From a virus: 64,000 nucleotides of DNA. The number at the start of each line of letters is the position of its first letter. The stretch's first letter is position 1. Location: the IMG/VR virus record IMGVR_UViG_3300047470_000115, positions 15,488-79,487 of that record; one strand, given 5' to 3'. Positions 2,930-64,000 of this stretch are shown here, in pieces. The translations under genes were made by a program, and so were the position numbers. Below the pieces are notes generated by a model. That model was not told the DNA's origin and did no database searches. It saw only the letters and a program-made list of their open reading frames with translations.

Positions 2930-3940
2930 GTGGGATTCTCTTCCCAGGGCGGCGCGGTACTCGTCAAGACGCAGGCGGTCAAGGGCACCTTCCCGGCCGA
3001 CTTCGACGCGACAGCGATCGGCGTCAAGCTTCGTTCTGGAGCACTCGGCGCCAGCCGAGACCTCCTCATTCCGGACCCCGAGATCGGTGGCGGTCGAGAC
3101 ACTGCCGACGCATACCTCGGTGCGATCTCGTTCTCCGGAGACTACGAGTTCTATGCGCGCATGGAGAGCGTCGGCTCGTTCCTGGCTGCCGCCCTCGGTG
3201 TCACGAACAGTGCACTCGTGACCGGCGTGGGAACTCACACCATCACGCCGAGCGATGCGGCGCAGTTGCCGTACATCGCAGTCCAGGAGCAGATCGGCGC
3301 CGGTCTCGATGCCTTCAACTACACGGACGCTGTCGTCAACACCTTTCACCTCGAAGCCGAGGCGAACGGGTACCTGATGGGCACGGCGGGTTTGATCGCG
3401 CGCACCCAGCTGCCGGTCGCATCGCCTGTGGCCTCGCCCGAGTTCGACAACACGCCGATGACTGTTGGCACGAACATCACGGCGACTTACAACGGCGTGA
3501 CCGTACCCGCGAAGTCCTTCAGCCTCGACATCAACAACAACTTCGAAGACGACGACTTCCGCCTCGGCTCGTTCTTCCTCGGGGACCTGACTCCGAAGAC
3601 TCGCGAGATCACGGCCCAGCTGTCGATCCGTCACGACTCGAAGGACATCTGGCGGCAGGCCACCTACGGGTCTTCGGCAGCCGTGGCCCCGGGCGGCATC
3701 GCGACGAAGCAGCCGCTCGTCATCACGATGACGACGTACGAGGACATCGTCGGCAGCACGCCGCTCACCAAGGCGAGCCTCCAGTTCACGATCCCCAAGG
3801 CGATCATCAGTCCGTTCGCGTACGGACCCTCGGGTGACGACATCCTGGAGAACGACATCGACCTGCGCGGACTTCGCCCCGACCCGGCGAACCCGATCCT
3901 CACGGCCGTGCTGAAGAACAGCCTGGCAACCCTCCCGTAA
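2930..3940 (+). CDS. major tail (tube) protein
   Basis: 336 aa, highly biased codons, tube-like pattern (SLDINNN, REITAQL), directly upstream of chaperones and tape measure. Confidence 0.85.
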   Translation: MGFSSQGGAVLVKTQAVKGTFPADFDATAIGVKLRSGALGASRDLLIPDPEIGGGRDTADAYLGAISFSGDYEFYARMESVGSFLAAALGVTNSALVTGVGTHTITPSDAAQLPYIAVQEQIGAGLDAFNYTDAVVNTFHLEAEANGYLMGTAGLIARTQLPVASPVASPEFDNTPMTVGTNITATYNGVTVPAKSFSLDINNNFEDDDFRLGSFFLGDLTPKTREITAQLSIRHDSKDIWRQATYGSSAAVAPGGIATKQPLVITMTTYEDIVGSTPLTKASLQFTIPKAIISPFAYGPSGDDILENDIDLRGLRPDPANPILTAVLKNSLATLP

Positions 3941-3987
3941 CCCAGATCAATTCGAGATAGCTAGACCTAGAAAGGGTCATCAGTCTC

Positions 3988-4883: not shown

Positions 4884-7800
4884 TTGAGCGCAGCAGTGAT
4901 GAACATCCAGGTCCGAGTTATCAACGGCAATGCCCGCTCGGTTCTTCGGTCTCTGCGCTCCGACATCGACAACGTGAACCGTGCACTTGGGGACACGAAT
5001 AAGCGGTCTGCACTTTCAGGTCGAGGCATGACCTCCCTGGGTAACCAGATCCAATGGACTGGACGACAGATCCAGACCAACTTCACCTTGCCACTCATCG
5101 CTGCAGGTGCTGCTGCAGTCCATTGGCAACTCCAAAACGAACAGGCGATGACAAGAGTCGCCAAGGTTTACGGGGACGCCTCTCTCTCTGCAGCCACAAT
5201 GAAGAACGAGCTCCATGCACTGAGTGGTGCATTCGAGGAACTGTCGAACCACTTCGGCGTGCAGCAGTCCGAGGTCATCGGCATCGCGGGTGACTGGGCT
5301 GCAGCCGGTGCATCAGGCCTTGCCCTCGCCAAGAGTGTCAAGCTCACCCTTGAGACCATGGTCCTCGGCGAGATGGACGCAGCCGAAGCGACGCAGGCAC
5401 TCATCGCGATCCAGGCACAGTACGGATTCAGCACTACTCGCCTCGCTGAAACGATCGGCTACCTGAACGCCGTCGAGAACCAGACCGGTATCTCGATGAA
5501 GGGCCTCATTCAGGGCTTCGCGCGTTCTGCTGGTGTAGCACGTCAGGCAGGTGTCGACGTCCGGCACCTGGCCGCCATGCTCGCAGCCATCAGCCCCGCT
5601 GCAGGTGGTGCGGCTGAAGCCGGTAACGCACTCAAGACTATCTTCTCTCGACTTGCATCTCCAACTCGCGAAACAAGTCAGGTGCTGAACCTCATGGGTA
5701 TCAGCATGAAGGACTTGGAGTGGAAGTCGTCGACGGCCACCGAGCAGCTTCAGATCATGTCGAAGAAGTTCAAAGAGCTGTCGGACAAGCAGAAGGAAGT
5801 CGTCTCGACGGTTGTCGCGTCGCGTTGGCAGATCAACAAGTTCTCCATCCTCATGCGTGAGTTGTCATCGGAGAACGGCTACTACCAGAAGGCGCTTGAT
5901 GCGACAGCGAGTCGTCAGCACGTCTTCAACCTGTACCAGAAGGAGCTCAACACTGTACTGAGCTCTAATCCGCGTCGGCTGCAGATCATCTGGACGATGA
6001 TGCAGAACGCTGCGACCGACATCATCCAGCCGATGATCCCACTTCTCCTGTATGTGGCGAACTCGGTTCGCATGGTGGTCCAAGCATTCTCGAGCTTGGA
6101 CCCGGCACTCCAGAAGCTTATCCTGTTCGGACTGGTAGCCCTCGCGTTTGTTGGGCCGTTCGTCAGGTACGTCGGATCGTTGCTGACGCTGATTGGCGCA
6201 CTCGTCACGATCGTCAGTGCCATGGCTGCGCCATTTATAGCTGGCTTCGCGGCCATCGGAACTGGCGCAGCAGCATTCGCTAAGGGTATTGGTTTCGTCT
6301 GGACCACCATCATGGTGAACCTGAGAGCCATTACTTATATCGGGATGGCCTGGATTCAAGGTGTCTGGGCTGCTGGCATGTTTGGACTGCGCCCCATCCT
6401 GTCGCTGGTCGGAATGATCATCGCGAGCAGGTGGGCAACGCTGATGGCAGCGCTCCCCCGTACCATGGCGGCAGCCCAGATCCTCATGAGGACGATCTGG
6501 ATCAATGGTCTGCTCGCCCTGGCCGCAGCACAGATCGTGGTAGGTGCCCTACTGACCCGCGCTTGGCTGGCGACCATGAGGGCGCAGGCTGTGATCACCT
6601 CGGTTGCGGGTACCGCAATCAGGGCAGCCTATACAGGTTTGATGCTGAGTATCGCGGCTATCTCGTCCGTGGTGTACCCGCTCGTTGTGCGCATGTGGAC
6701 TGCGATGATGACAGGCGTCTTCATCGTGGTGAACGCTTGGAGCAGGTTCACTACGATGATCTACCGCGCCTTTGCGATGGGCCTTACGCCCATCAGCGTG
6801 GCGGCTGGCGCGCTCCTCACTGCAGCCTGGACCGCAATTACCACTGCTGTACAGTACGTGCTCCTCGCTGGCACGATTGCGTACACAGCTATTTGGCGCC
6901 TGTTCGCCTTCGGCCTCGCGCCCATCACCGCAGCTGCAGGCAGGCTACTCACTGCAGCGTGGGTCGCGACAATGCGCGCCCAGATGATCGTGATGGCGGC
7001 AGCTCAGAGAGCGTGGGCTCTTGCGTGGTCCGGCATGGTCGCGATTGCTGCAGCTGGCTCCAGAGCCATCGCCCTCGTAACCACCATGGCCACGGGCGCG
7101 ATCACCCTCCTGGCGGCGTTCCCCGGACGCGTGGCAGCCCTCTTCCGTGGCGGTTGGGCCCTATTGCTAATAGTGGCGAGAGCCGGACTTGCCGGTCTCG
7201 CGTCGCTCATTACCGGCGCGGTTGGTGCGATCAGTTGGCCCGTCGTAGCAGTGATTGCTGCCGTCGTTCTGTTGATCGCAGGGTTCTGGGATCAGATCCA
7301 GGCCATCTGGAACAACATAGTCAACTACTTCAGCAACAGTGGGAACTCGCTAGTTACGGCAGTCAGGAACACCTTTGGCAGCCTGGGCAGCATGATGTCC
7401 AGGGTGTTCAACAAGCTGCCCGAGAGTGTGAAGAACGCAATGCTGGCGGTGGTCAGCCTGGTCGCCGCAGCCGCACGCAAGGTGTACGAACTCTTCAGCT
7501 ACATCAACCCGTTCGCGCATCACTCGCCCTCGCTCGTCGAGAATGTCACGAACGGTATGGCGATAGTTCGCAAGCAGTTCGCGACACTCTCCGAGGTTGA
7601 GGGTTACGTCAAGTCTGCCTACGCAACGATCAGTGCATTCGGGCGCGCGACGGCAGGCCTCGCCTCGAAGAACCAGGCAGCCGACTTCGCGGAGAAGCGC
7701 GCCTCGATCGTCAAGCAGTCCCCGAGTGCCGGGCCTGCGTTTGACTCGATGGTGGCACAGATCAATAAGCTGACGCCTGTACTTAACCAGCTGAAGTCTG

Positions 7801-10800
7801 CAGTAGCAGCACAGCAGGCTGTCGTTGATCAGTGGTCCAAGGCTCTTGACGATGCCAACGCCAAGCTGGACGTTCAGCAGGATAAGCTAGAGAAGCTGAA
7901 GAAGGTTGCTGACGACCTACAGAACCAGCTCGATGCTGCGAAGTCGACTCTCGACACCTGGGCGGACACTCCCATCCAGGGTCAGCAGGCAATGTCTGAT
8001 GCGATCTTCGATAACACGATGGCGCAGAAGAAGCTCCAACTTCAGATGATGGAGATGGAGAAGATCACCGGCCCGCTTGATGACATCAAGAGTAAGATGT
8101 CTGCGATCAACGGCCAGATGGATCAGCTGCAGGGCATGCGTACAAGCCTTCAGCAGGGTGGCGCTGGATCTGACATCCTCAAGTTCTATGACGACCAGCT
8201 CGCTGGCCTGCAGGGTCAGAGTGATGGACTTGGAGAGCAGGCGAAGGCGCTCCAGGATATGCAGGATCAGCTCGACGAGTTGGCGCGCAAGGGCCAGGAG
8301 CTTGACCTGCAAAACAGCATCCAGTTCGATCCGCTGATTCGGCAGATCGAGCAGGCGTCGAAGGATATGAAGGAGATGCCCTTCGACACCATCATGGCTG
8401 GGATTAAGGGCAGCAAGGCTGAAGTCGACAGCCTGACTGATGCGTACAACAAGGCTAACGCCGAGGTCGAGAAGCAGCAGAAGGTCGTTGACGCAGCCAC
8501 GGCGGCGCGTGACGCGATCCAGAAGCGTTACGATGAAGAGAACAAGAAGCTTCAGACCCTCAAGGACTCGTACGACAAGATCAACCAGGCCATCCAGGAC
8601 ATCACCAACAGCCTGAATGACATGGCATCGGCAGCTGATGCTGCTACCCGTCGGGCTACCGATAAGAAGGCAAAGAAGAAGGGTGGCGACAGCCTCAGCC
8701 CTGGTGCGCAAAACTTTATCGATGCAGCCGGTGGCAACTTCCCCGACCCGGGCATGGATGCCGCGATTGGCCGAGAAGGCGGTATAGGGGATCAGTCGTC
8801 GGCCATTGACGACTTCACGAAGGATCTTGCTAAGCAGACGTCCGGTATGTTTGCTGGACTCAATCCCCTTGGCCCGCTCAAGAAGTGGTGGGACAAGGCG
8901 TGGAGCTGGCTCAAGAAGTACATCGGCCCGCTGTTCTCCGGACTGGGAGACTTCATCGGCTCCGCCTTCGAGGGTATGGGAGACCCCTTCGGTGGCGCGA
9001 TGAGCGGATGGATGGACAGCATCAAGGGTTTCGTTGACACTTCGGTAAAGGTGTTCGGCGAGATCGTTAGCGGCGTGTCCACATTCGTCGGACAAGTCTG
9101 GGGATTCATCCAAGGGTTCTGGGACTTTGCGCAGCCTATCTTTGAGCACCTATGGGACGGCATTGTCGATGGACTCAAGAAGATGTGGGACAAGATTGGT
9201 CCACAGCTTGCAGCGTTCGGCGACCTCGTCAAGCCCGTCGGTGACGCGATCAGTAACCTGTGGACACTGATCGGACCTATCATTGGACTGATCTTCGCTG
9301 ATCTTGCTGCAGGCGTAATGCTCGTGGTGGACATCATCGCGCACACCATCGGTCCAGTACTCGAGACCATTGGTGCCATCATCGGTGGAGTCATCCGCAT
9401 CATTCGAGGAGTCATCGAGTTCCTCGTCGGAGTCTTTACCCTCGACTGGGATATGGCCTGGAAGGGCATCACTGATATCTTCGGTGGCGTCTGGGACATC
9501 ATTGCAGGCATCGTTACAGGCGCCTGGAATATCGTGGTCGGTATCCTCGTAGGTGCACTTGACTGGGTTGGCCATGTCTTCGCGTTCATCTGGAACAAGG
9601 TCAAGGGGCCGTTCAAGGATGCATGGGACTGGATCACAAAGAAGCTGACAGGCTGGAAGGATAGCTTCGTCGGCACTATGCGAGACCTGTCGAACTGGCT
9701 CGGCACGAAACTCGCCAACGCATGGAAGCCCGTAAGTGACTGGTGGAGCTCGACTTGGGGCACCATCAAGAAGAATGCGATCGGCGCCAAGGACGCGATC
9801 ATTAAGCCCTTCGTCGATATGTATAACTGGATCTCCAGCAAGCTCACTGGTGTCATGGGGACCATGTCGGCGAAGTGGAAAGAAAAGTGGACAGACCTTA
9901 AGAAGTGGTTCAACGACGCGAAGAAGTGGATCAGCGATCCGCTGAAGGACGGCATCAACTTCGCGATCTCGGCGATCAACCTGCTCATCAGTGGACTGAA
10001 CAAGGTAGCCGACCTACTGCCAGGTCTGGACTGGCACATCAGCCCCATCCCGAAGCTGGCAGCCGGTGGTGGCATTCCGACTAAGCATGTCGGCGGAGGC
10101 TTCAAGACGACTGGTCCGAGGGCCATCGTCGGCGAGGGTAACCAGCGATACCCAGAGTATGTCATCCCGACTGATCCGATGTATCGAGGTCGAGCGTTCA
10201 ACCTGCTCGGCGGTCTTACGTCTGACCTTGGAATCGCGCAGAGTTCGATCGGAGGCGTCCCGGCCTACAAGGGCGGTGGCATCCTCGGCTCGATCGGTGA
10301 CGCGATCGGAAGTGCAGGAAACTTCTTCAAGGGCCTGGGCGACGACCTACTGAGTCACATCAGCGACGGTGTGGCAAGTTACATTGTCGATCCATTCTTC
10401 AAGATGGCTGACCCCTGGGTAAGCAAGATTAATTGGAAGTTCGTCAAGGGTATGTGGAATGCCGGAAAGGCGAAGATCAAGGACTGGCTGTCGTTCACTG
10501 ATGACGCCGCGAAGGAGAAGTACGAGGAGGGTGGCGCCGCTGGAATCCCTGCTGGAAAGCTGAAGACCTGGATCACCAAGGCCCTCGGCATCATCAAGGA
10601 ATCCCTGAGTCTCTCCAAGGGCGTCTACAACATCGCCATGCATGAGTCTGGCGGTAACCCTCGGGCTATCAACCTCACGGACAGCAATGCCAAGGCGGGT
10701 CACCCGTCCAAGGGCGTTATGCAGACTATCGACGGCACGTTCAACGCGTACTCGATCAAGGGCCACAAGGATATCTGGAACCCGGTCGACAACATCATCG

Positions 10801-11147
10801 CGGGTACCAGGTATGCAATCTCTAGGTACGGACGCAAGTGGCTCCAGAAGGGTGGCAACCGAGACAAGAACGGAAATTACATTGGTTACGAGATGGGTGG
10901 CATTTTGGGGTCCATCCCGAGCCTCGCGCAGGGTGCTTACATCCGGCGCAAGGCGGGCGGTACGATCGTCCGGGTTGGAGAGGGTCAGCACGACGAAGCT
11001 GTTCTGCCACTGCCTAGGGGTGCACAGGATCTCAAGGGTGGGACGACGAACAACTTCTACGGCGACCTGTCCTTCCCGAACATCAAGTCTGGCGACGACG
11101 CCCAGGCGTTCCTCGATAACCTTGAGACCCTAACGGCAGGTAAGTGA
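4884..11147 (+). CDS. tape measure protein with C-terminal lytic transglycosylase (SLT) domain
   Basis: 2087 aa; TP901-type N-terminal region, hydrophobic Trp-periodic segment, coiled coil, and HESGGNPRAIN...GVMQ...NIIAGTRY SLT motifs. Confidence 0.95.
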   Translation: MSAAVMNIQVRVINGNARSVLRSLRSDIDNVNRALGDTNKRSALSGRGMTSLGNQIQWTGRQIQTNFTLPLIAAGAAAVHWQLQNEQAMTRVAKVYGDASLSAATMKNELHALSGAFEELSNHFGVQQSEVIGIAGDWAAAGASGLALAKSVKLTLETMVLGEMDAAEATQALIAIQAQYGFSTTRLAETIGYLNAVENQTGISMKGLIQGFARSAGVARQAGVDVRHLAAMLAAISPAAGGAAEAGNALKTIFSRLASPTRETSQVLNLMGISMKDLEWKSSTATEQLQIMSKKFKELSDKQKEVVSTVVASRWQINKFSILMRELSSENGYYQKALDATASRQHVFNLYQKELNTVLSSNPRRLQIIWTMMQNAATDIIQPMIPLLLYVANSVRMVVQAFSSLDPALQKLILFGLVALAFVGPFVRYVGSLLTLIGALVTIVSAMAAPFIAGFAAIGTGAAAFAKGIGFVWTTIMVNLRAITYIGMAWIQGVWAAGMFGLRPILSLVGMIIASRWATLMAALPRTMAAAQILMRTIWINGLLALAAAQIVVGALLTRAWLATMRAQAVITSVAGTAIRAAYTGLMLSIAAISSVVYPLVVRMWTAMMTGVFIVVNAWSRFTTMIYRAFAMGLTPISVAAGALLTAAWTAITTAVQYVLLAGTIAYTAIWRLFAFGLAPITAAAGRLLTAAWVATMRAQMIVMAAAQRAWALAWSGMVAIAAAGSRAIALVTTMATGAITLLAAFPGRVAALFRGGWALLLIVARAGLAGLASLITGAVGAISWPVVAVIAAVVLLIAGFWDQIQAIWNNIVNYFSNSGNSLVTAVRNTFGSLGSMMSRVFNKLPESVKNAMLAVVSLVAAAARKVYELFSYINPFAHHSPSLVENVTNGMAIVRKQFATLSEVEGYVKSAYATISAFGRATAGLASKNQAADFAEKRASIVKQSPSAGPAFDSMVAQINKLTPVLNQLKSAVAAQQAVVDQWSKALDDANAKLDVQQDKLEKLKKVADDLQNQLDAAKSTLDTWADTPIQGQQAMSDAIFDNTMAQKKLQLQMMEMEKITGPLDDIKSKMSAINGQMDQLQGMRTSLQQGGAGSDILKFYDDQLAGLQGQSDGLGEQAKALQDMQDQLDELARKGQELDLQNSIQFDPLIRQIEQASKDMKEMPFDTIMAGIKGSKAEVDSLTDAYNKANAEVEKQQKVVDAATAARDAIQKRYDEENKKLQTLKDSYDKINQAIQDITNSLNDMASAADAATRRATDKKAKKKGGDSLSPGAQNFIDAAGGNFPDPGMDAAIGREGGIGDQSSAIDDFTKDLAKQTSGMFAGLNPLGPLKKWWDKAWSWLKKYIGPLFSGLGDFIGSAFEGMGDPFGGAMSGWMDSIKGFVDTSVKVFGEIVSGVSTFVGQVWGFIQGFWDFAQPIFEHLWDGIVDGLKKMWDKIGPQLAAFGDLVKPVGDAISNLWTLIGPIIGLIFADLAAGVMLVVDIIAHTIGPVLETIGAIIGGVIRIIRGVIEFLVGVFTLDWDMAWKGITDIFGGVWDIIAGIVTGAWNIVVGILVGALDWVGHVFAFIWNKVKGPFKDAWDWITKKLTGWKDSFVGTMRDLSNWLGTKLANAWKPVSDWWSSTWGTIKKNAIGAKDAIIKPFVDMYNWISSKLTGVMGTMSAKWKEKWTDLKKWFNDAKKWISDPLKDGINFAISAINLLISGLNKVADLLPGLDWHISPIPKLAAGGGIPTKHVGGGFKTTGPRAIVGEGNQRYPEYVIPTDPMYRGRAFNLLGGLTSDLGIAQSSIGGVPAYKGGGILGSIGDAIGSAGNFFKGLGDDLLSHISDGVASYIVDPFFKMADPWVSKINWKFVKGMWNAGKAKIKDWLSFTDDAAKEKYEEGGAAGIPAGKLKTWITKALGIIKESLSLSKGVYNIAMHESGGNPRAINLTDSNAKAGHPSKGVMQTIDGTFNAYSIKGHKDIWNPVDNIIAGTRYAISRYGRKWLQKGGNRDKNGNYIGYEMGGILGSIPSLAQGAYIRRKAGGTIVRVGEGQHDEAVLPLPRGAQDLKGGTTNNFYGDLSFPNIKSGDDAQAFLDNLETLTAGK

Positions 11148-32192: not shown

Positions 32193-32220
32193 TCTTACGA
32201 TTCACCTCCTAGGTGAAATA

Positions 32221-32274
32221 GAAAAAGCGAGACTACGCCCAACCAGTCGCGAGGACCGGTTGGGCGTAGTCTCG
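32221..32274 (-). terminator. intrinsic terminator
   Basis: 17-bp stem cgagactacgcccaacc/ggttgggcgtagtctcg; A-run on + gives a U-tail on -. Confidence 0.8.
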
Positions 32275-32284
32275 TATGAAGTTG

Positions 32285-33730
32285 TTACGTCCAGGGCAGG
32301 GCGCCTTCGGTTTCATCCGCAGGCTCTTCGTACTGATCCACGCCAGGCTCTGCGAAGCCCTGGGGCGGACCGGGTACTTCTGCTGCCCAGACGGGCATGC
32401 TACTGCTTACCGCACCCCCCGCACCGTCGGGCACGACTTCAGCGACCTGTACGGCTTGCGGCATGCCCATTGGAGCGAAGGGAATGCCGCTTGACGCGCG
32501 GGCCGGTGAAGGTGCACTCTGTGCGGGGGGCGGAGGTGCAGCTGCCGTTGCGACCGGGGTTCCGGAGGGCTGTCCGGTCTGGACCGGCGCGGCGGCGGGC
32601 TGCGGTTGCGGAGCAGGCTGTACCTGCTGTGCTGGAGCAGGCGTCTGTTGTGCCATGTACTGCGGTTGCGGTTGCTGCTGCTCTTGCTGCGGCTGCGGTT
32701 GCGTGGGTGCAGTATTCGGAACCACACTCCCCTGAATGGTCTGATGACCACCCATGAGGCGGGCCAACGGGTCGGGGGCTCCCGACGAGACGAGCTCCTT
32801 CACCCGACTGGGCGGCGGCGCACTTCGGCGACCTCCACCCATCGAGGACGGGTCTACGCCGTCCTTCAGTTCGTCGACACTCATGACGAAGTTCGGGTCC
32901 TCCGAGCGCGGCGGCTGGAGGCCGTTGACCGCGTGCTCCTTGTCTTCGGCTTCGATGATGATGTTCTTGGTGAAGTCACGCATCTGCGAGAATTGACCCG
33001 ACAGTGCAGCCCAGTGGTCTGCAGGAATCGTTCCGGTCACCTCGACACGCGGGGTGCAGAACTGCACTTCCCCGCTGGTGTGCATATCGAGCGCAAGGTT
33101 GACCATGAACTGGTACGGCGACGCGTTCTTGCCGCTGCTGAACACCTTCCTGAAGAACTTCTTCATCGGCTTGATGCCCGCGCCCTTGATAGACAGGAAC
33201 GCGGTGACCGGCTGCTCTGCACCAGGGGGCTGGTACATCACATACACGTTCATGATCAGGCCGCACGCCGGACGGCTGCCGTCGCTGCCCCAGATCTGGA
33301 AACTGCACTTCGTGCAGTCCAGAATCACCCGGTTGTAAACCGGGTTTACCTGGGCCTTTGTCGGCTCGAAGACGCTCGTGTTCCAGGGGAACAGGACCGG
33401 CTTCTCGACGTCCGTGTTGGGCTGGCCGTGCTCGTTGTCGTTCGACCTGCACTGAGGCATTTCGTCCGACTTGAAGCCCTGGCCTGGCTTGGTGGGCTTC
33501 CACATGACGCGCGAGTAGCTGAAGCCGAGGATCACGACGTTCGCGAGAATGTCGTACTCGGTGTCGCTGACGGACTCGACGAATCGGCCGTCCTTGTGGT
33601 TGATCCTGAGTCGGGGATAACCTCCCTCCTCAAGTTCATCCATGCCGGTTTCGAGGTCTTCCGGCACACCACCCGCGTGCTGCTTTACGAGTTCAGACCC
33701 AACCATCGAGTCTTCGACGGGTACGCTCAA
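32285..33730 (-). CDS. putative ssDNA-binding/annealing protein with long Pro/Gln/Ala tail
   Basis: N-terminal YPRLRI...PQCRSND...C..C...W...C domain; disordered tail ending in acidic EEPADETEGALPWT; strong codon bias. Confidence 0.6.
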   Translation of the reverse strand: MSVPVEDSMVGSELVKQHAGGVPEDLETGMDELEEGGYPRLRINHKDGRFVESVSDTEYDILANVVILGFSYSRVMWKPTKPGQGFKSDEMPQCRSNDNEHGQPNTDVEKPVLFPWNTSVFEPTKAQVNPVYNRVILDCTKCSFQIWGSDGSRPACGLIMNVYVMYQPPGAEQPVTAFLSIKGAGIKPMKKFFRKVFSSGKNASPYQFMVNLALDMHTSGEVQFCTPRVEVTGTIPADHWAALSGQFSQMRDFTKNIIIEAEDKEHAVNGLQPPRSEDPNFVMSVDELKDGVDPSSMGGGRRSAPPPSRVKELVSSGAPDPLARLMGGHQTIQGSVVPNTAPTQPQPQQEQQQPQPQYMAQQTPAPAQQVQPAPQPQPAAAPVQTGQPSGTPVATAAAPPPPAQSAPSPARASSGIPFAPMGMPQAVQVAEVVPDGAGGAVSSSMPVWAAEVPGPPQGFAEPGVDQYEEPADETEGALPWT

Positions 33731-47097: not shown

Positions 47098-47319
47098 CAG
47101 TTAGGGTACCCTAACCTAGCGCTGACGATTTGTCGACATGTCGCTACTCGCCCGGAGTGGCCATACTCAGATCAAGTTTGGCGCGGATGTTGTGATAGTT
47201 GGTCTCGTCACTCTCCGACCAGTCGCCGTCGTCAGAGTACTTCTGGCGGTGCGCGTCAAGCGCCTCCAGGACCAACGCATACTCGCCTTCAGTGAATTGC
47301 ATACTTGACCTTCCCCGGT

Positions 47320-47445
47320 AAGTAAAAACAAGGCGCTAGGGCGCTGCGCCGCAACCCAGAACTCAGGGCCACCCGAGTCTGGTTACCGGTCCAACCCGTT
47401 CAGGAAGACCGTGCGGCGCAGCTTCCTAGCGCCTTGTGTTTCGTT
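47320..47445 (-). ncRNA. candidate small regulatory RNA (~125 nt, three-way junction)
   Basis: Own promoter at 47451-47479; 13-bp plus 11-bp closing stems, two inner hairpins, U-tail at 47324-47328; no credible ORF. Confidence 0.7.
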
Positions 47446-47450
47446 GCCCG

Positions 47451-47479
47451 ATGATAACACGGGTGATCGCATCACACAA
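47451..47479 (-). promoter_or_regulatory. promoter TTGTGT-N17-TATCAT (extended TG) for the small RNA
   Basis: Sits between the upstream gene's terminator and the structured RNA. Confidence 0.6.
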
Positions 47480-47489
47480 CCCCCAACAA

Positions 47490-47532
47490 GTACTGAATCC
47501 CCCCGCATCTTGCTCTCGGGGGGATTCAGTAC
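47490..47532 (-). terminator. intrinsic terminator
   Basis: gtactgaatccccccg/cggggggattcagtac 16-bp stem. Confidence 0.8.
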
Positions 47533-47550
47533 CGGGCTGGGAGACCCGCG

Positions 47551-48666
47551 TCAGGCAGTCCGACGCGCACCCTTCTTGCCCTCCGGCGAGTCCTCGGCCG
47601 TGACACCCTCGATGTTCGGGATGGTGCTGGGGCCGCCGGACGACGGGAACAGGCGGGCGCTGACGGCACCGGCCGAGGGCGGGTTCTTGCCCTCGTACTC
47701 CTTCGACGGGAACTTCGAGATCCAGGCGATGGCCTTGAACTCGCCGACCGGCACGTCAGCCATGGCCTCGGCGACGTGCTTGCCGATGTCACCCTGGGCA
47801 CCACCCGGGACGCGCGGACGACTGCCGCCACCCGCCGAGGCGCGGCGCCGGGCACCGGCCGCCTTGCCGTCGGCCGCCTTGAAGGCGCGCTTCACGTACT
47901 CGGGCACCTCGGGCTCGTCGCCCCGGTTCTCGGTGTCCGTGTTCCGGTACCACTCGGCGTACGCCTCGAAGGACTTGTGCTCGTTGGTCTCCGGGTCCTG
48001 GTACGCGTTGACCAGGGCGTGGATCGACTCGCCCGCCTTCTCCTTGTCGACCTCGTCCGCGATCGGCAGCGCCATGGTGGCGAGCGACAGGGACAGGAAC
48101 TGGTCGACGTACGCCTCGGTCGGGTCGACCTTCGCCGCCGTCGCGGTGGCGCGGGTCGCCGTGGCCGCCTTCTTGGTCTCGTTGACCAGGAGGTTGTACG
48201 ACTTGGCGCGCATGATCGAGTCGTACATCGTGTCTTCGCCCTCGTCGTCCAGGAGCTCCTGGACCTTGCCCGTCAGCATCGGGCGGGCCTTGCGCTTCTC
48301 GCTGGCGTCGAGCTTGCGGTACGCCTCGCCGAACTTGGCGATGAGGGCCTCGGGGAGGGAGCCGGTCTGCTTGTCGCGACCCTCGTCCTCCATGATCTCG
48401 GCGCACAGCTTCATCAGGTCGGCGACCGGGTCGGCCTCGGGCTCGGTGGTCGCGTCCGCCTCGGCGGGCGCGTCGCCCTCGGAAGCCTGGGCCTCGCCGG
48501 TCGCCTCGGTGACCTCGGCCGGGGCCTCGTCGGTCGCTTCGGCCTCGGTCACCTCGGGCTCGGCCGCTGTTGCGGTCACGGTCGCCTCCTCGTTCCCGGT
48601 CTGCTCCGGGGTCTCGTTCGCCGTCTCGTCGGCAGTGGCAGTGTTGCGGGGGTTACGGCGAGCCAT
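47551..48666 (-). CDS. probably highly expressed protein: acidic Glu/Ala/Thr N-terminus, C-terminal wHTH-like domain
   Basis: Near-exclusive GC3 codons; GGAGG RBS; own promoter and terminator; NPPSAGAVSARL motif. Confidence 0.8.
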   Translation of the reverse strand: MARRNPRNTATADETANETPEQTGNEEATVTATAAEPEVTEAEATDEAPAEVTEATGEAQASEGDAPAEADATTEPEADPVADLMKLCAEIMEDEGRDKQTGSLPEALIAKFGEAYRKLDASEKRKARPMLTGKVQELLDDEGEDTMYDSIMRAKSYNLLVNETKKAATATRATATAAKVDPTEAYVDQFLSLSLATMALPIADEVDKEKAGESIHALVNAYQDPETNEHKSFEAYAEWYRNTDTENRGDEPEVPEYVKRAFKAADGKAAGARRRASAGGGSRPRVPGGAQGDIGKHVAEAMADVPVGEFKAIAWISKFPSKEYEGKNPPSAGAVSARLFPSSGGPSTIPNIEGVTAEDSPEGKKGARRTA

Positions 48667-49088: not shown

Positions 49089-49613
49089 TTAAGCGGTAGG
49101 CTCGCCGAAGGTGAGGAACCTGAGCTGCTCGTGGAACGCGCGAGGCTCCAGTGCCCAGTCGCCACCGTGCTCGTCCCGGAAGTGAATCCAGATAGCTTCG
49201 GGGGTCTCGTCGTACTTGGTGACAGTGACCGTCGTCGTACGACTGCTGTCGCCAGGACTCCAGAGCCAGAGCGATCTGAGCGGAACCGCCTCGGACATGA
49301 GCTCGTCGGTCGGGCCACCGATCGGCTCTTCGCTCAGACGCAGAACGTTGACCTTCGGCATGATACCGAAGGTGTAGTTCTGGTGACGAAGGCCGCCGTC
49401 GCCGTACAGGTAGACACCCGGCATGACGCGAGATACATCGGAACCGACCGCCTCGGCGAGTGTCACACTGACGTACTCGACCTTAGATAGCGCAGTCTCC
49501 TCGCGGATGACCTTGTCTACCGTGCCCTCGATCTTGTGCAGACCGAAGTCACTCTTGAAGAAGTGACGGATGACGTCACCCTTCTTGATCTCGCTGGCGG
49601 GAATCTCTCCCAC
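49089..49613 (-). CDS. hypothetical protein
   Basis: GGAGG RBS; IPASEIKKGDVI SH3-like start. Confidence 0.7.
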   Translation of the reverse strand: MGEIPASEIKKGDVIRHFFKSDFGLHKIEGTVDKVIREETALSKVEYVSVTLAEAVGSDVSRVMPGVYLYGDGGLRHQNYTFGIMPKVNVLRLSEEPIGGPTDELMSEAVPLRSLWLWSPGDSSRTTTVTVTKYDETPEAIWIHFRDEHGGDWALEPRAFHEQLRFLTFGEPTA

Positions 49614-49638
49614 TGTACCTCCAGGTAGCTACAAAAGA

Positions 49639-49683
49639 GAGCACCGGGATATCCTGCTTTATGAGCAGGATATCCCGGTGCTC
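49639..49683 (-). terminator. long hairpin terminator
   Basis: gagcaccgggatatcctgct/agcaggatatcccggtgctc 20-bp stem, U-tail on -. Confidence 0.8.
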
Positions 49684-49692
49684 GTTCTTGGA

Positions 49693-50841
49693 TTACGCAG
49701 CCAGTTCGGTGACGAAGCCGCGAAGGCCACGCACTGACTGGGTGTCACCGAACCTCGCCTCCAGGTCGTCCGCGAACTGCTGCGAACGGCCCTGCACGAC
49801 AGCCGTCTGGCGGTCGACGAGGCGGAGGTTACTTACGGCGTTCATAGTGACCTCTACTGCTGCATCGGCGTCAGCTTCGGGGCCAGACGCCTTGATGCGC
49901 GCGTCCGCCATGCGCGCCAGGAAGGCGTTCATGCCGTTGATCGAGTCGAGCCTGCCGAGCACCAGGTGGGCAGTCGCATCGAACCGACTGATGTCTGCCT
50001 TGCGCCCCTCGGCGAACGCCAGTATGGCCACGGTGTCCATGGTGTACTGGGAGTTCTGGAGGAGCGTCCAACGGAGCAGGTTCGGGTCAGCGCTCGGGTC
50101 GCCAGTCCCACTGGAGAACAGGAACTGACTGGTTGCGTTGGACAAGTGCTCGCGCGCTTTGTTGTTCTGTCCGTCCATGGCGTATGCGCGGGCCAGCTGG
50201 TGATAGCCGAACGCGCCCCGATCGCGACTGAAGTACGTGGCGAGGCTTGCGGAGCGTGCCGCATTCCTCTTCGCGCCCTGTGCATCCCCACTGTACAGGT
50301 AGAGCCACGCTCTACAGCCGTACAGCCATGACCTGGTGTCGTCGTCCGGTGCATGCTTCAGTGCCGAACGATACCAGTGTTCGGCGTCAGCCAGCTCTCC
50401 CCGGTCGCCGAGGAACTGCGCGACAAGGCCAGCCGCCGTGGCTTCGAGCTTGTACGCCTTGCCCGACAGTGTGGCGGACTTCAGGTGCATGTTACGCAAT
50501 GCACTGGAATCTCTCCACGCGGCCAGGGCGTTGGACATGAGCTCGCTGGGGTTTGCACCAGGCTGCATGTGCTCGCGACCGATGCGGAAGAGCTGCATCT
50601 CGATGGCCCCGAGGGCGCCGCCCACGTTCGAGTTGGTCTCTATGGTCGTCGCTTCGGCACTGGCTGCCGAAACGAGATTCTCGGTCACCGCAAGGCTTGC
50701 GGCACCGAGCATCGAGACAAGGAAATCTCGTCGATGCTGCACCACGTCCCCCTTCAAGTCGATCGAGGACCTGAACTTGCCGAGGATGGCCAGTGCCGAA
50801 CGACTGTCGACAAGGCTATCATCGTCATAGTCAGTCATCAA
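49693..50841 (-). CDS. TPR-like helical protein resembling the Streptomyces NsdA/XRE-regulator C-terminal region, without an HTH
   Basis: RRDFL...GAASLA motif, then D.G....AEHWYRSAL..A and LARAYAMDG...AREHL repeats. Confidence 0.65.
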   Translation of the reverse strand: MMTDYDDDSLVDSRSALAILGKFRSSIDLKGDVVQHRRDFLVSMLGAASLAVTENLVSAASAEATTIETNSNVGGALGAIEMQLFRIGREHMQPGANPSELMSNALAAWRDSSALRNMHLKSATLSGKAYKLEATAAGLVAQFLGDRGELADAEHWYRSALKHAPDDDTRSWLYGCRAWLYLYSGDAQGAKRNAARSASLATYFSRDRGAFGYHQLARAYAMDGQNNKAREHLSNATSQFLFSSGTGDPSADPNLLRWTLLQNSQYTMDTVAILAFAEGRKADISRFDATAHLVLGRLDSINGMNAFLARMADARIKASGPEADADAAVEVTMNAVSNLRLVDRQTAVVQGRSQQFADDLEARFGDTQSVRGLRGFVTELAA

Positions 50842-60369: not shown

Positions 60370-62620
60370 ACTGACGCTATCGGATTGGACCAGGTTTAGC
60401 AACCTGGCCCGCTTCCCATAGGTCAGGGAAGGGCACTTTCGGCTTTGCGTTACCGGCGCTCGCCCGTTTCCGGGGTCTACGGCTCGACGACAAGTCGGGC
60501 CTTGGCGCGGGCTTGGGGGAGAACCCAAGCCTTTTCGTTCGCCTAATCGTGTGGTGCGTTGCTACCAGTCTAGCACACCTTGCCGGGGCTGGTCGCCCCC
60601 ACCGACAGGTGGACGTGCAGGTCTACGGTACTGCACCCCCCATATGGGCGGGGCTGGTGTTGCTAGTCCGACTGTAGCACGTTCGGCTGGGGCCTCGTAC
60701 CCCCCATGTGTTGAACGCGTAATGCCAGGCTAACGGCTTACCTATGCGCGGCCCACACGCTAGGACAGGTAGCACCGGTACGGAACCTGGCGTGACATAC
60801 CTACCCCTACATATAGGCGCCGCCAGGTATCGACTCCCTAGCTACGTCCTACGTTGGAGGGCCCTACTCCCCGCGCCTAATGGTGCGGTGTGGGACCGGC
60901 GCCTGGTGGGGGGATAGAACCCCCATCGGGCTGTGCCCAGTCTAGCACAGGTGCACTGGGTGGAACCCCGTGCGGACTGTGCGGGTTGGGCCTCACTACT
61001 ACGTGCGCCGTGCTGGCCGTGCGTTGTGGTGACGGGGTCGACTATTCCGCAAACGGACCAAGATCGCAACACCTTGTATGTAACGGAATGGTAACGCAGA
61101 ATCGGACTTGTTGGGGCACATTGCCGATAACACGGATTATCGGCATGTGGTGAAATTCATACAGAATGGGATCAGTCGCAACGTACCATAGCAAATTAGG
61201 ACATAAGGGTACGTATAGGTACTTATCGATCGCCGGCATTGAGGCAGACATATCGGACAAATGGTGGGATAAGTAAAATAACGGGCGGGGGGGTATGCGC
61301 GGCGCCTTTATGCAGGTCCGATGCATATCAACTTTTACGAGGTAAGAATGTATTCTGGACCTAACCCCGACTAAAAAACGCCAGTCATTTCGCTGTCCGC
61401 GAAAATAACCGCAGGTCAATGGGGGTTTGGGGGTCGGACGCCAGCGAAATAGCGGTCGTACTTAGCCTAGGAAATCGACGTCTTTTGCTACAGAAATCGC
61501 TGATTAATCCGAAAGAATGCATCGATTGCAGCCAGGATGCACCCACATGGGTGCCAGCTAGACGTCGAATGGCAAAAGAATCCGCTTTCGGACGTAAAGA
61601 CGCCCCCTAACTGTAGATATTCGCGAAACGGACATTTCCAAAGTCTCCTATGTCGTCGACACCTTTTACCAATTTTGCAATCAAGGTGCACCCGTCATGG
61701 GTGACCTGCCCTCTGTTTTCGGACGCCCTGGCTCGATGTCGGTACACCTCGCCGTCCGCTTTCACGTAGCGTGATGGAGCGGCGCGCAAAGCGGGTCCGA
61801 AGTCGCACCCACATGGGCGGGAGTCGGTTTAGTTATCACTCAAAAGATTCCCAAATCCGACAGATTGCCGTTTTGGCGTCAGCGAAATCAGCGAAATTGT
61901 CAGCACAAATAACCGCAGGTCAACCCCTATATGGGAGTGGTTTAAGCAATTTCGCTTACACCCCCCCCCCCCCCCCTTTCTCTGTTTGTCACTCACCGTT
62001 ACCCGGCACCCCACCCATGGGTGCGTCACCGTGCGTGCCTGGGGGTCCCCGGGGGGTCGGCCAAGCGTCAGCACAAATAATTCTGACCTGCGGTTTTGTA
62101 CGGCCACACCCCGTTTGGCGTGCGCATATTTTCGCGTACGGGGCCGTCAGCGCTATCAGCAGAATGACTGGTCTAATTCGGACATTCGGGTGACGATTAT
62201 CGTGATTCTGCAACAAGGCGTCCGTCCGCGGTTTCGCTGAACGTAGCCTTGCGTAGCACTGCATCTCACGCTCCGTATACACTGCTACGCCTTTTCGACT
62301 ACGCGGTACCCAGAATTTCCACGAGTCGTCCGTCATAGCCAGCCTTCGTGTCGAAATCCAGCATTCTGCATAGCGTGACGGGTATTTCTGGTGTCATCTC
62401 TGACGGTCCGTCAGATCCGTACATGATCAAATGTTAGATGTACCTTCAACCCACCGACAAAGTCGTTCCGCTGACGCTCAAAGTCGTATTCGCGGCCAAA
62501 AACTTGCACAAGAATCTAGCCCGGCGCCGTCCGCGCAATTCGCTGACCTGCGGAAACGTCCGTCAGCGGAATTGTTTGCCCCGTTATGTCCTATGTGCAA
62601 GTCGTGCACATACTTGGGCT
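60370..62620. other. large non-coding divergence region with several repeat families (candidate origin or genome-end/packaging region)
   Basis: No ORF with phage-like codon bias; AT-richer core; repeats CCGCAGGTCA, CCCAYATGGG and TCAGCRMAAT; C16 tract. Confidence 0.65.
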
Positions 62621-62622
62621 AT

Positions 62623-62651
62623 TTGGCAATTATCGCCCATGGTGCTAACAT
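62623..62651 (+). promoter_or_regulatory. promoter TTGGCA-N17-TAACAT (extended TG)
   Basis: 35 nt upstream of the 62686 start. Confidence 0.65.
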
Positions 62652-62685
62652 TCTGCATATTCACACTCGAAGAAGGGGGAACTGG

Positions 62686-63084
62686 ATGGCGAACGAAGAA
62701 GCCACGTCAGAGAACTTCATTCAGAGGGCTGTCGAGGCTCTCATGGGCGGGGCCAACAATGAGGCTTTCAGCGTACTGACGGATGGTGAACTGTTCGGCT
62801 TCGGTATCGCGCTGATCGCGGTGGAGCGCGGTCACACTGTCGCTCGCGCCTCCTGGGGAAATCCCGGCAAGTACGTGTTCCTTCAGGCCGGGGAGGAGAT
62901 GTTCGACCCCGAGACGCATCAGCCTGCGCCACTCAAGCAGCATCTCGTCTGGAAGAACGACAGGGGCGAGTTCATCCCCTGGACTCCGTCGCAGGATGCT
63001 GTGCTGGCGCGTGACTGGTTCATCGGAAAGTCCGGTGACTATCCTTACGGCAGGTTCCCGGCTGCAGAGCCGATCCAGAACTGA
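62686..63084 (+). CDS. DUF2829 family protein (Tad2-like anti-defence signal sponge)
   Basis: FGIAL...G..VAR..W....YVFL...WTPSQDAVLARDW matches the DUF2829 pattern; AGGGGG RBS. Confidence 0.85.
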   Translation: MANEEATSENFIQRAVEALMGGANNEAFSVLTDGELFGFGIALIAVERGHTVARASWGNPGKYVFLQAGEEMFDPETHQPAPLKQHLVWKNDRGEFIPWTPSQDAVLARDWFIGKSGDYPYGRFPAAEPIQN

Positions 63085-63254
63085 TGATGGGGCCCGAGGC
63101 ACATCTCGTCTGGAAGTGCCCACACGAGATGTGTGCATCAGAGCAGCTCGGCGACATGGATTCGCCGTACGATGAGTACAGGTGTGTTACGCACCAGGTG
63201 GATCTCGTGCTGAGTGATCGTGTCATTCACGCGCCGGACGGTCGGGGTATGTAG
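63084..63254 (+). CDS. small Cys/His protein (56 aa, not in the ORF track)
   Basis: TGATG-coupled to the DUF2829 gene; WKCPHEMC...RCVTH. Confidence 0.5.
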   Translation: MMGPEAHLVWKCPHEMCASEQLGDMDSPYDEYRCVTHQVDLVLSDRVIHAPDGRGM

Positions 63255-63359
63255 CCCCGACACGGCACACAGTGGCCCCGTCCTGCCATCCTCTCCGGCT
63301 CCGCACACACGGACCGGGGCGGGGGCGGAGCGGGGCCACGTTCCTACTTAGGGGGCAAA

Positions 63360-63572
63360 ATGAAGTATCATGCCATCTGGTACAGCTCGGCAAACAAGGT
63401 GCGCATCTTCGAGGTCGACGAGGCAGGCAATGAGGAAGTTCTCCATGAAGAAAGTGCTCATGACCACCAGGTCGCTGCCGAGTTCGTCAAAGAGCAGGGC
63501 TTCGGCTTCACTGACCTCTGGGTGCACGACTCGAAAACATTTAACTATCAGGCACCCCTCAAGGCCATGTAG
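63360..63572 (+). CDS. hypothetical protein
   Basis: AGGGGG RBS; acidic 70 aa. Confidence 0.65.
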   Translation: MKYHAIWYSSANKVRIFEVDEAGNEEVLHEESAHDHQVAAEFVKEQGFGFTDLWVHDSKTFNYQAPLKAM

Positions 63573-63625
63573 CGCAAACTTCCCCCCCGTGAAACAAGTA
63601 TCTTGGTAACTACGCGCCGAATGGC

Positions 63626-63655
63626 TAGACACGCACCGCGCACGCACGCTAGCGT
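63626..63655 (+). promoter_or_regulatory. possible promoter TAGACA-N18-TAGCGT
   Basis: Directly upstream of the structured region. Confidence 0.5.
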
Positions 63656-63661
63656 GTGAGT

Positions 63662-64000
63662 TGTTGCACAGCTGGTGTTGAAGGACAGCAGAGGTGTTGC
63701 GCCCCGTTGGGTCCGGCCTTGACCCTCGTAGCTTGCCAACGCCCCACGTTGCAGGCGCGAGGTGCCAAATCCCCCCCTGCCGCCTCGCGAGTGTCGAGGC
63801 CGGACCCGCCCCCAACTTAATAAGCAAGGCTGCGCGGTGCTGAGGTGCCGCTGGGGAGTGTCATGTCTCGTTCCGCGCAGCCTGATACCCCCTCCGCTAC
63901 CTCTAGGTAGCCAGTTGTATCGCAGGAAAGTCGTCCGGCCGACACTCCACCTGCGACGCGAGGGGAAAGAGCGAAGGCCCGACACCTAGCCTGCAGGTGT
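63662..64000 (+). ncRNA. candidate large structured RNA (may continue beyond the window)
   Basis: Successive nested stems with G-U pairs that work only on the + strand; no credible ORF. Confidence 0.55.

Follow-up and report, generated by a model that had tools for sequence, protein, structure and literature searches.

A structured, terminator-bounded non-coding stretch between convergent phage operons, a candidate for a new RNA family

The window analysed here is a stretch of 64,000 nucleotides, bases 15488-79487 of the 79,487-bp IMG/VR virus record IMGVR_UViG_3300047470_000115 of an uncultivated soil phage known only through metagenomes, and the candidate element that concerns us touches the end of that record. 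It belongs to a non-coding stretch that extends from 63573 to the window end plus 23 bases and sits where two transcription units converge. On one flank, a short rightward accessory arm closes with a Tad2-like gene (match to Pfam PF11195, E 6e-17), followed by the gene of a 70-aa protein (63360-63572, + strand), with which rightward coding ends and the non-coding stretch begins. Both genes have GGGGG-type ribosome-binding sites, that of the 70-aa gene being AGGGGG before its ATG. The 70-aa protein gave no match to any Pfam or PHROG family; by hand count, 10 of the 13 substitutions that separate its ORF from the closest relatives (X2 and X3, introduced below) fall on third codon positions, which identifies it as a real gene. 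On the other flank, a leftward operon runs from record base 7178 down to 156 and encodes a primase, an 883-aa primase-helicase and small proteins. Rightward from record base 7497 come a small terminase with a TGT-like part, the large terminase (9098) and the structural genes. The packaging genes thus begin 7.5 kb past the element and have another, divergent promoter region, with the oppositely oriented operon in between.

Several neighbours deserve a comment of their own. The ORF of the Tad2-like gene spans 62431-63084, and its start is probably the ATG at 62686, not 62431: this ATG has a AAGGGGGAA ribosome-binding site, a promoter-like TTGGCA-17-TAACAT lies ahead of it at 62623, and the third-position bias of substitutions against the relatives appears only after 62686. 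The rightward arm is a hot spot of small-gene turnover, where X2 and X6 have 45 other bases instead of 63086-63251 (166 bp, holding a 56-aa ORF at 63084-63254) and X6 has 86 bases in place of 62659-62713. Across the convergence point, a 142-aa gene (- strand, record bases 156-584) has its stop codon 10 nt past the terminator. The last ~40 residues of its product (...RWWDARLVELNKAI...) form a module that recurs at 65-80% identity in many hypothetical proteins of Streptomyces genomes and prophage-like contigs, and the protein is unique outside this C-terminal module. In the 534-aa protein encoded before the large terminase (record 7497-9101), the C-terminal part matches small-terminase PHROGs and the middle part gives a weak match to a queuine tRNA-ribosyltransferase family.

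The end of the record within the element calls for an explanation. The first 132 bases of the record equal its last 132 (window 63869-64000) with one mismatch: 126 identical bases are followed by a mismatch at 127 (A at window 63995, T at record base 127) and then by 5 more. In a second, independent assembly, made from the probable source run, the stretch lies complete within a 79,379-bp contig whose break is about 7 kb to the left. Because this contig spans the stretch and breaks elsewhere, the assembly is circular, which makes of the window end a break in the assembly and no biological end. By our own inference, the overlap pattern points to a branch of the k = 127 assembly graph within the terminator hairpin loop and not to a terminal repeat, so that the 'linear' label of IMG/VR would sit on a complete circular assembly.

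The element itself can be followed from left to right. After the 70-aa gene comes a conserved, unstructured spacer with a C7 run (63573-63625), and folding of 63573-63700 does not exceed that of shuffled sequences (z +0.8 on the + strand, +1.4 on the - strand), which means that the 5' part is not unusually structured. A promoter-like site, TAGACA-N18-TAGCGT, occupies 63626-63655 on the + strand and would place an RNA start near 63660. Its -10 hexamer is overlapped by a perfect 12-bp palindrome, CACGCTAGCGTG (63645-63656), found by self-match, which might be an operator; we estimate the chance expectation for such 12-bp palindromes at ~0.1 in 428 nt. A weak 5' hairpin (63662-63701) has some pair probabilities below 0.6 and alone is not significant. 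Then follows domain I (63708-63808), a predicted three-way junction in which a closing helix of 15-16 bp, extending to 20 nt at 90% complementarity, carries two hairpins with the apical loops CCCCA (63742-63746) and AAUCCCCCCC (63768-63777), with pair probabilities mostly close to 1. In the predicted fold, the A/U-rich linker CCCCCAACUUAAUAAGCA (63809-63826) is single-stranded and leads to hairpin II (63827-63883), whose 11-bp base is perfect, whose upper stem is imperfect and whose apical loop reads GGGG. Domain III (63889-63965) is a second predicted three-way junction, closed by CCCCUC/GAGGGG and bearing the arms GCUACC/GGUAGC and UCGCAGG/CCUGCGA. Finally, the 5' arm and loop of a terminator fill 63966-64000; its 3' arm and UUUU lie past the window, at record bases 127-149.

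Much of this architecture had been proposed in an earlier note made from the letters of the window, and every structural element that it listed is found at the coordinates given. The promoter-like hexamers are present, the 11-bp helix (63827-63837 with 63873-63883) is perfect, and the multibranch closed by 63889-63894 with 63960-63965 is confirmed as a three-way junction with both of the arms that had been listed. The 15-bp helix proposed for 63709-63723 with 63793-63807 exists as well, but it encloses two hairpins and not a single nested one. The hairpin that had been seen at the window edge is completed by the first bases of the record into a 22-bp stem followed by UUUU, and extension of the sequence beyond the window end, which the note had advised, brought to light both this terminator and the convergent operon. 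Such a downstream context disposes of another proposal of the note, that the region is the leader of the packaging or head genes. Since the terminator and genes of the opposite strand lie directly downstream, and these genes continue to record base 7178 with the terminases starting from 7497 and 9098, no such leader is possible. Neither does a role in packaging, also put forward, find a basis, as nothing ties the element to proheads, and phi29-type pRNA is among the models of Rfam, where no family came near threshold.

How would transcription of the stretch be bounded? At the 5' side, a stricter consensus promoter scan did not pick up TAGACA-N18-TAGCGT. A looser rule (at least 5/6 of TTGACA, a spacing of 16-19 and TAnnnT) is satisfied at just 24 places when both strands (159 kb) are counted together, or 0.15 per kb per strand; many of them are before genes, including the site before the Tad2-like gene. 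Measured by the E. coli consensus, the site of the element is weak, with 3/6 in the -10, and as a putative promoter it is plausible. The structured part follows the 70-aa gene with no intervening terminator, and read-through is therefore an alternative source of the RNA. At the 3' side, the edge hairpin is a bidirectional intrinsic terminator between convergent genes. Its 22-pair stem has -45 kcal/mol on the + strand and -43.6 on the - strand, and the GC-rich stem has an A tract on one side and a T tract on the other, giving the tails UUUUG on the + strand and UUUCC on the - strand; a consensus terminator scan missed it because of its loop of 9 nt. Leftward transcription reaches this terminator before the element. 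By eye, the sole alternative pairing joins the 3' arm of the terminator to a similar GGCCGACAC word in domain III. A riboswitch or attenuator was rejected, because there is no downstream gene to regulate and the alternative pairing is far weaker than the terminator.

The region 63573-64000 carries no protein gene. The flanking genes show a clear third-position GC periodicity, which this stretch lacks. The longest ORF across it, 145 aa on the - strand, was never called as a gene and has no homologue among 5.8 billion proteins. In the relatives, indels of 1 and 2 nt at 63582, 63779, 63808, 63918, 63931 and 63949 disrupt every ORF of at least 49 aa on either strand. Missing periodicity, a homologue-free ORF and frame-breaking indels together rule out a protein gene on both strands. 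A tRNA or tmRNA was also rejected, with no gene called by ARAGORN in the window, in agreement with the earlier note, which had seen no such signature.

The stretch folds clearly better than shuffled sequences: 63626-64000 as a whole has a z of -6.56 on the + strand and -1.98 on the - strand. One of the refuting conditions named in the note, folding energy on a par with shuffled controls, thus did not apply. Its parts contribute unequally, with z of -7.47 and -2.85 (+ and - strand respectively) for domain I (63700-63812), -4.08 and -3.2 for hairpin II, -3.81 and -3.3 for domain III, and -10.4 and -10.6 for the terminator. After regression on composition, the 375-nt segment from 63696 on the + strand ranks third of 2120 over both strands of the whole genome. 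From 63660 to the U run, the fold comprises 124 predicted pairs, nearly all of high pair probability, and thus a well-defined ensemble. Its unpaired bases are C-rich (42 C versus 24 G among 113), which bears out the C-rich linkers that had been described. The helices shared by both strands contain 8 G.U against 1 A.C, favouring the + strand as the note had argued from its G-U pairs; the - strand, however, offsets part of this difference with other wobble pairs of its own, and we regard the preference for the + strand as moderate. Folded as DNA, the domains also beat the shuffles, with less strand asymmetry, and domain I still reaches z -5.7 as ssDNA. Taken with the missing coding signal, the 3' terminator and the conservation described next, these results support the structured non-coding + strand RNA of more than 340 nt that had been proposed.

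GC content is 0.59-0.73 throughout the stretch, with neither an AT-rich tract nor iterons. Self-comparison found no paralogue of the element in the genome, a covariance model of domain I detected no second copy in the window, and direct repeats are limited to two pairs at chance level, with no tandem repeats. On these grounds we rejected a type III antitoxin array, which would need tandem repeats; the iterons or AT-rich unwinding tract of a replication origin are likewise wanting. Elsewhere in the genome, ~47196-47650 (both strands), 32196-32570 (- strand) and 49446-49970 (- strand) are, relative to their composition, as over-folded as the element (residual z -3.4 to -4.2 across the genome-wide scan), and several structured non-coding stretches seem to be present in this phage.

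Relatives of the element come from soil-metagenome sequencing runs, here called X2 and X3 (about 96% identical) and X6 (about 90%); no RNA run is among the sequencing runs listed as holding it. Against X2 and X3, there are at most 10 substitutions in the 428 positions of 63573-64000 (2.3%), at most 3 in the 295 of 63523-63817 (~1%), and a single one in the 209 of the X3 piece 63562-63770 (0.5%), where the figures inside the element are totals per piece, given as upper limits, together with all indels. For comparison, third codon positions have changed at 10/71 (14%) in the 70-aa gene and at 16/133 (12%) in the Tad2-like gene. Substitution density is six times lower in the element than at adjoining synonymous sites (Fisher tests, p ~1e-4 to 1e-5), a degree of constraint equal to that seen at first and second codon positions. 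Two points bear on how this should be read. Another non-coding stretch nearby, 62400-62685, is likewise only ~2% diverged, so that low divergence is not peculiar to the element, and the near-identity of 63562-63770 could stem from a recent recombination patch.

Conservation is unevenly spread over the element. Domain I is its most conserved part in X2 and X3, and domain III is more variable, with 7 substitutions and 4 gap letters in X3 over 63818-63981. Most indels of the relatives lie within predicted loops, bulges and linkers, among them an extra C of X2 right at the start of the linker that follows domain I. X6 retains 63252-63813; 67 other letters replace 63814-63887, that is, the linker and hairpin II, domain III is kept at ~85% identity, and the sequence after 63973 is different. 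Since hairpin II and the terminator have been exchanged in X6, some parts of the element are dispensable.

More distant relatives were sought widely. With 11-base words, blastn found no match in 50,697 phage records, including the right-end region of L5 and D29, and none of 72,556 plasmids showed DNA similarity. In IMG/VR, scans by protein (four flanking ones and two alignments) and by one DNA pattern returned no usable relative; the one thing shared there is the 40-aa C-terminal domain, found in Streptomyces-type prophages of 70-72% GC whose non-coding part is dissimilar. No relative emerged from the JGI metagenomes searched by protein and DNA pattern, nor from species-representative genomes searched by protein alignment and DNA pattern. 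Relatives of the helicase at 50-98% identity, and of a 192-aa neighbour at 79%, occur only in sequencing-run assemblies. The comparison with Rfam that the earlier note had suggested matched no family: none of the 4227 models of Rfam 15 hit the whole window at gathering thresholds, and permissive filters on 63300-64000, 63695-63815 and 63810-64000 gave noise, at most 17 bits against thresholds of 35-100, so that no family attained as much as a quarter of its threshold. The element may therefore be considered a candidate new RNA family, matching no Rfam model. To its nearest cultured phages, which infect Rhodococcus, Gordonia and Tsukamurella, the helicase is 27-34% identical, and on this basis the host is probably one of the Mycobacteriales. 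Searched with the covariance model of domain I, the corresponding loci of these cultured relatives gave no hit.

What, then, is the element? The candidate RNA is non-coding, unusually structured, terminator-bounded and conserved in close relatives. We favour the reading that the element is the gene for a stable, structured phage non-coding RNA of ~358 nt, read rightward, and hold this about as probable as all other accounts combined. From the letters and the predicted fold we infer how such an RNA would be transcribed, where it would start and how it might act. Transcription would start near 63660 from a weak sigma-70/HrdB-type promoter, TAGACA-N18-TAGCGT, with the 12-bp palindrome over its -10; read-through from the 70-aa gene may contribute. 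It would stop at the strong bidirectional terminator, which is also the end of the convergent primase/helicase operon. The RNA is predicted to fold into two three-way-junction domains and a long hairpin, with C-rich or A/U-rich linkers between them, and the terminal 22-bp hairpin together with the compact domains would render it stable and let it accumulate. Against this reading, the domains also reach z ~ -3 on the - strand, as inverted repeats fold both ways, and the stretch at the syntenic place in Rhodococcus phage Perlina is AT-rich and unrelated.

The strongest competing explanation is that the structures are a 3' untranslated tail and terminator array of the rightward accessory operon (Tad2-like and 70-aa genes). 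The hairpins would then shield the mRNA from 3' exonucleases and, with the terminator, insulate the convergent operons from read-through and antisense transcription. In Perlina the genes are arranged alike: a short rightward cluster meets a leftward replication operon, and at the convergence point lie ~380 nt of non-coding DNA (3433-3811 of the examined locus) and a bidirectional terminator. Its non-coding stretch is AT-rich and moderately structured (z -3.7, -2.9), with a sequence unrelated to the element. At the syntenic place, Rhodococcus phage ReqiDocB7 has 2.5 kb of unannotated DNA (8371-10853 of the examined locus). A tail would fit the exact position of the element at the convergence point, the missing terminator between the 70-aa gene and the structures, and the exchange of hairpin II and terminator in X6; also in its favour, actinobacterial terminators often lack U tracts. 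Yet one 22-bp terminator would be enough for such a purpose, whereas two three-way junctions and ~250 nt of near-invariant sequence (within 63523-63817, with its 3 changes at most) exceed the needs of protection and insulation, and the conserved promoter-like site with its palindrome suggests separate control. We therefore deem a tail rather unlikely; should the element be a structured operon tail and nothing else, it would be ordinary.

A second alternative is that the inverted repeats act as DNA, at a place of packaging or genome termini, of replication start or of recombination. The ends of the record fall here with their 132-bp overlap, the element adjoins the replication operon, and domain I remains structured as ssDNA (z -5.7). 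In addition, the genome ends of the distantly related Rhodococcus phage Reynauld lie, downstream of its primase gene, in ~1.7 kb of non-coding DNA, and this DNA includes an exact direct terminal repeat of 362 bp (1-362 and 3620-3981 of the examined pieces), which keeps a DNA end at this place alive as an idea, with low weight. However, the independent 79,379-bp contig spans the element and breaks elsewhere, and the overlap seems to bear the signature of a k = 127 graph branch and not of a terminal repeat. Iterons and an AT-rich tract are absent, and the sole integrase-like gene, and hence any attP, lies 28 kb away; with no serine recombinase found either, an attP site was rejected. Nested three-way junctions with strand-biased wobble pairs are, moreover, atypical of protein-binding palindromes. 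All this makes a DNA-level element improbable. That the stretch is functionless, what is left of decayed genes or of a small mobile insertion and inverted-repeat-rich by chance, would agree with its variable accessory surroundings (63086-63251 replaced in X2 and X6, 62659-62713 in X6), with the exchanged hairpin II of X6 and with the lack of homologues in the phage, plasmid, IMG/VR, JGI and species-representative collections searched, but is the least probable account of all, given a substitution density six times below that of adjoining synonymous sites, folding that is extreme against both shuffles and genome background, and no repeated genomic copies or target-site-like flanks.

If the element does encode a stable RNA, what might this RNA do? 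It would most likely act through its exposed C-rich loops and linkers (CCCCA, the C7 loop and a CCCCC linker), which might pair with G-rich sequences of Shine-Dalgarno type in phage or host mRNAs in the manner of the 6C sRNA; alternatively, they might bind a host protein. Action through the C-rich loops in either way is thinkable, though we rate it as doubtful. The GGGGG-type ribosome-binding sites of the upstream genes are compatible with pairing to a C-rich loop and do not prove it, and within the phage genome the longest complementarities to these loops, 11-13 nt, are at chance level. Bolder, and in our estimate a good deal less credible than a stable RNA as such and somewhat more doubtful than action through the loops, is the idea that the element founds a new family of large multi-domain phage RNAs for host takeover or counter-defence. 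It is prompted by the fast-changing accessory arm, which starts with a Tad2-like signal sponge and is closed by the element, and by the most conserved part of the element, a predicted three-way junction with two C-rich loops. Were it true, the RNA could be a decoy or regulator that silences G-rich ribosome-binding sites in hosts of the Mycobacteriales, or it could sequester a host RNA-binding or defence protein. In any case, the element shows evident sequence constraint and stands last in an accessory arm with an anti-defence gene, and, if transcribed, would be a tractable candidate for studying how such phages control their own or host genes by means of RNA.

Comparison with known systems helps to place the element. 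Like GOLLD, ROOL and the pRNA of phi29, which acts in packaging, it would be a large multi-domain RNA carried by a phage; unlike them, it has no Rfam match, although all three are in Rfam, and it differs in size, architecture and genomic position. Bidirectional intrinsic terminators are matched exactly by the last ~50 nt of the element, and the ~300 nt of junction domains upstream are extra. In the actinobacterial 6C sRNA (RF01066; PMC6486639, PMC5014011), C-rich loops pair with G-rich mRNA sites without a chaperone (PMC6486639), and two adjacent predicted hairpins of the element, with their C-rich loops CCCCA and a C7 run, resemble it. The element, however, gives no RF01066 score even at E = 10, and its hairpins sit inside a 101-nt three-way junction of a predicted ~358-nt RNA, whereas 6C is stand-alone and shorter than 100 nt; besides, the element is phage-borne and 6C is a conserved chromosomal locus.

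The closest parallel may be found in the abundant RNAs of actinobacterial phages. The Cluster A mycobacteriophages L5, D29 and StarStuff make abundant, stable non-coding transcripts of ~500 nt from Pleft (PMC5712189), and Rhodococcus phage WC1 has the non-coding RNAs nc_1 to nc_3 (PMC10986025); abundance and stability of these RNAs have been measured and their roles are unexplained (PMC5712189, PMC10986025). They have no sequence similarity to the element, and they are 5' leaders transcribed from an early promoter before the first gene, whereas the element, known from sequence alone, closes a short operon at its 3' side, directly before a terminator. Nevertheless, the likeness extends to a high-GC Gram-positive host, a length of several hundred nt, the lack of a conserved ORF, and a position at the edge of the early or accessory arm, beside a transcription-unit boundary. 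Few of the very abundant non-coding RNAs of actinobacterial phages have a defined structure, and in this respect the element offers a compact and well-defined predicted fold.
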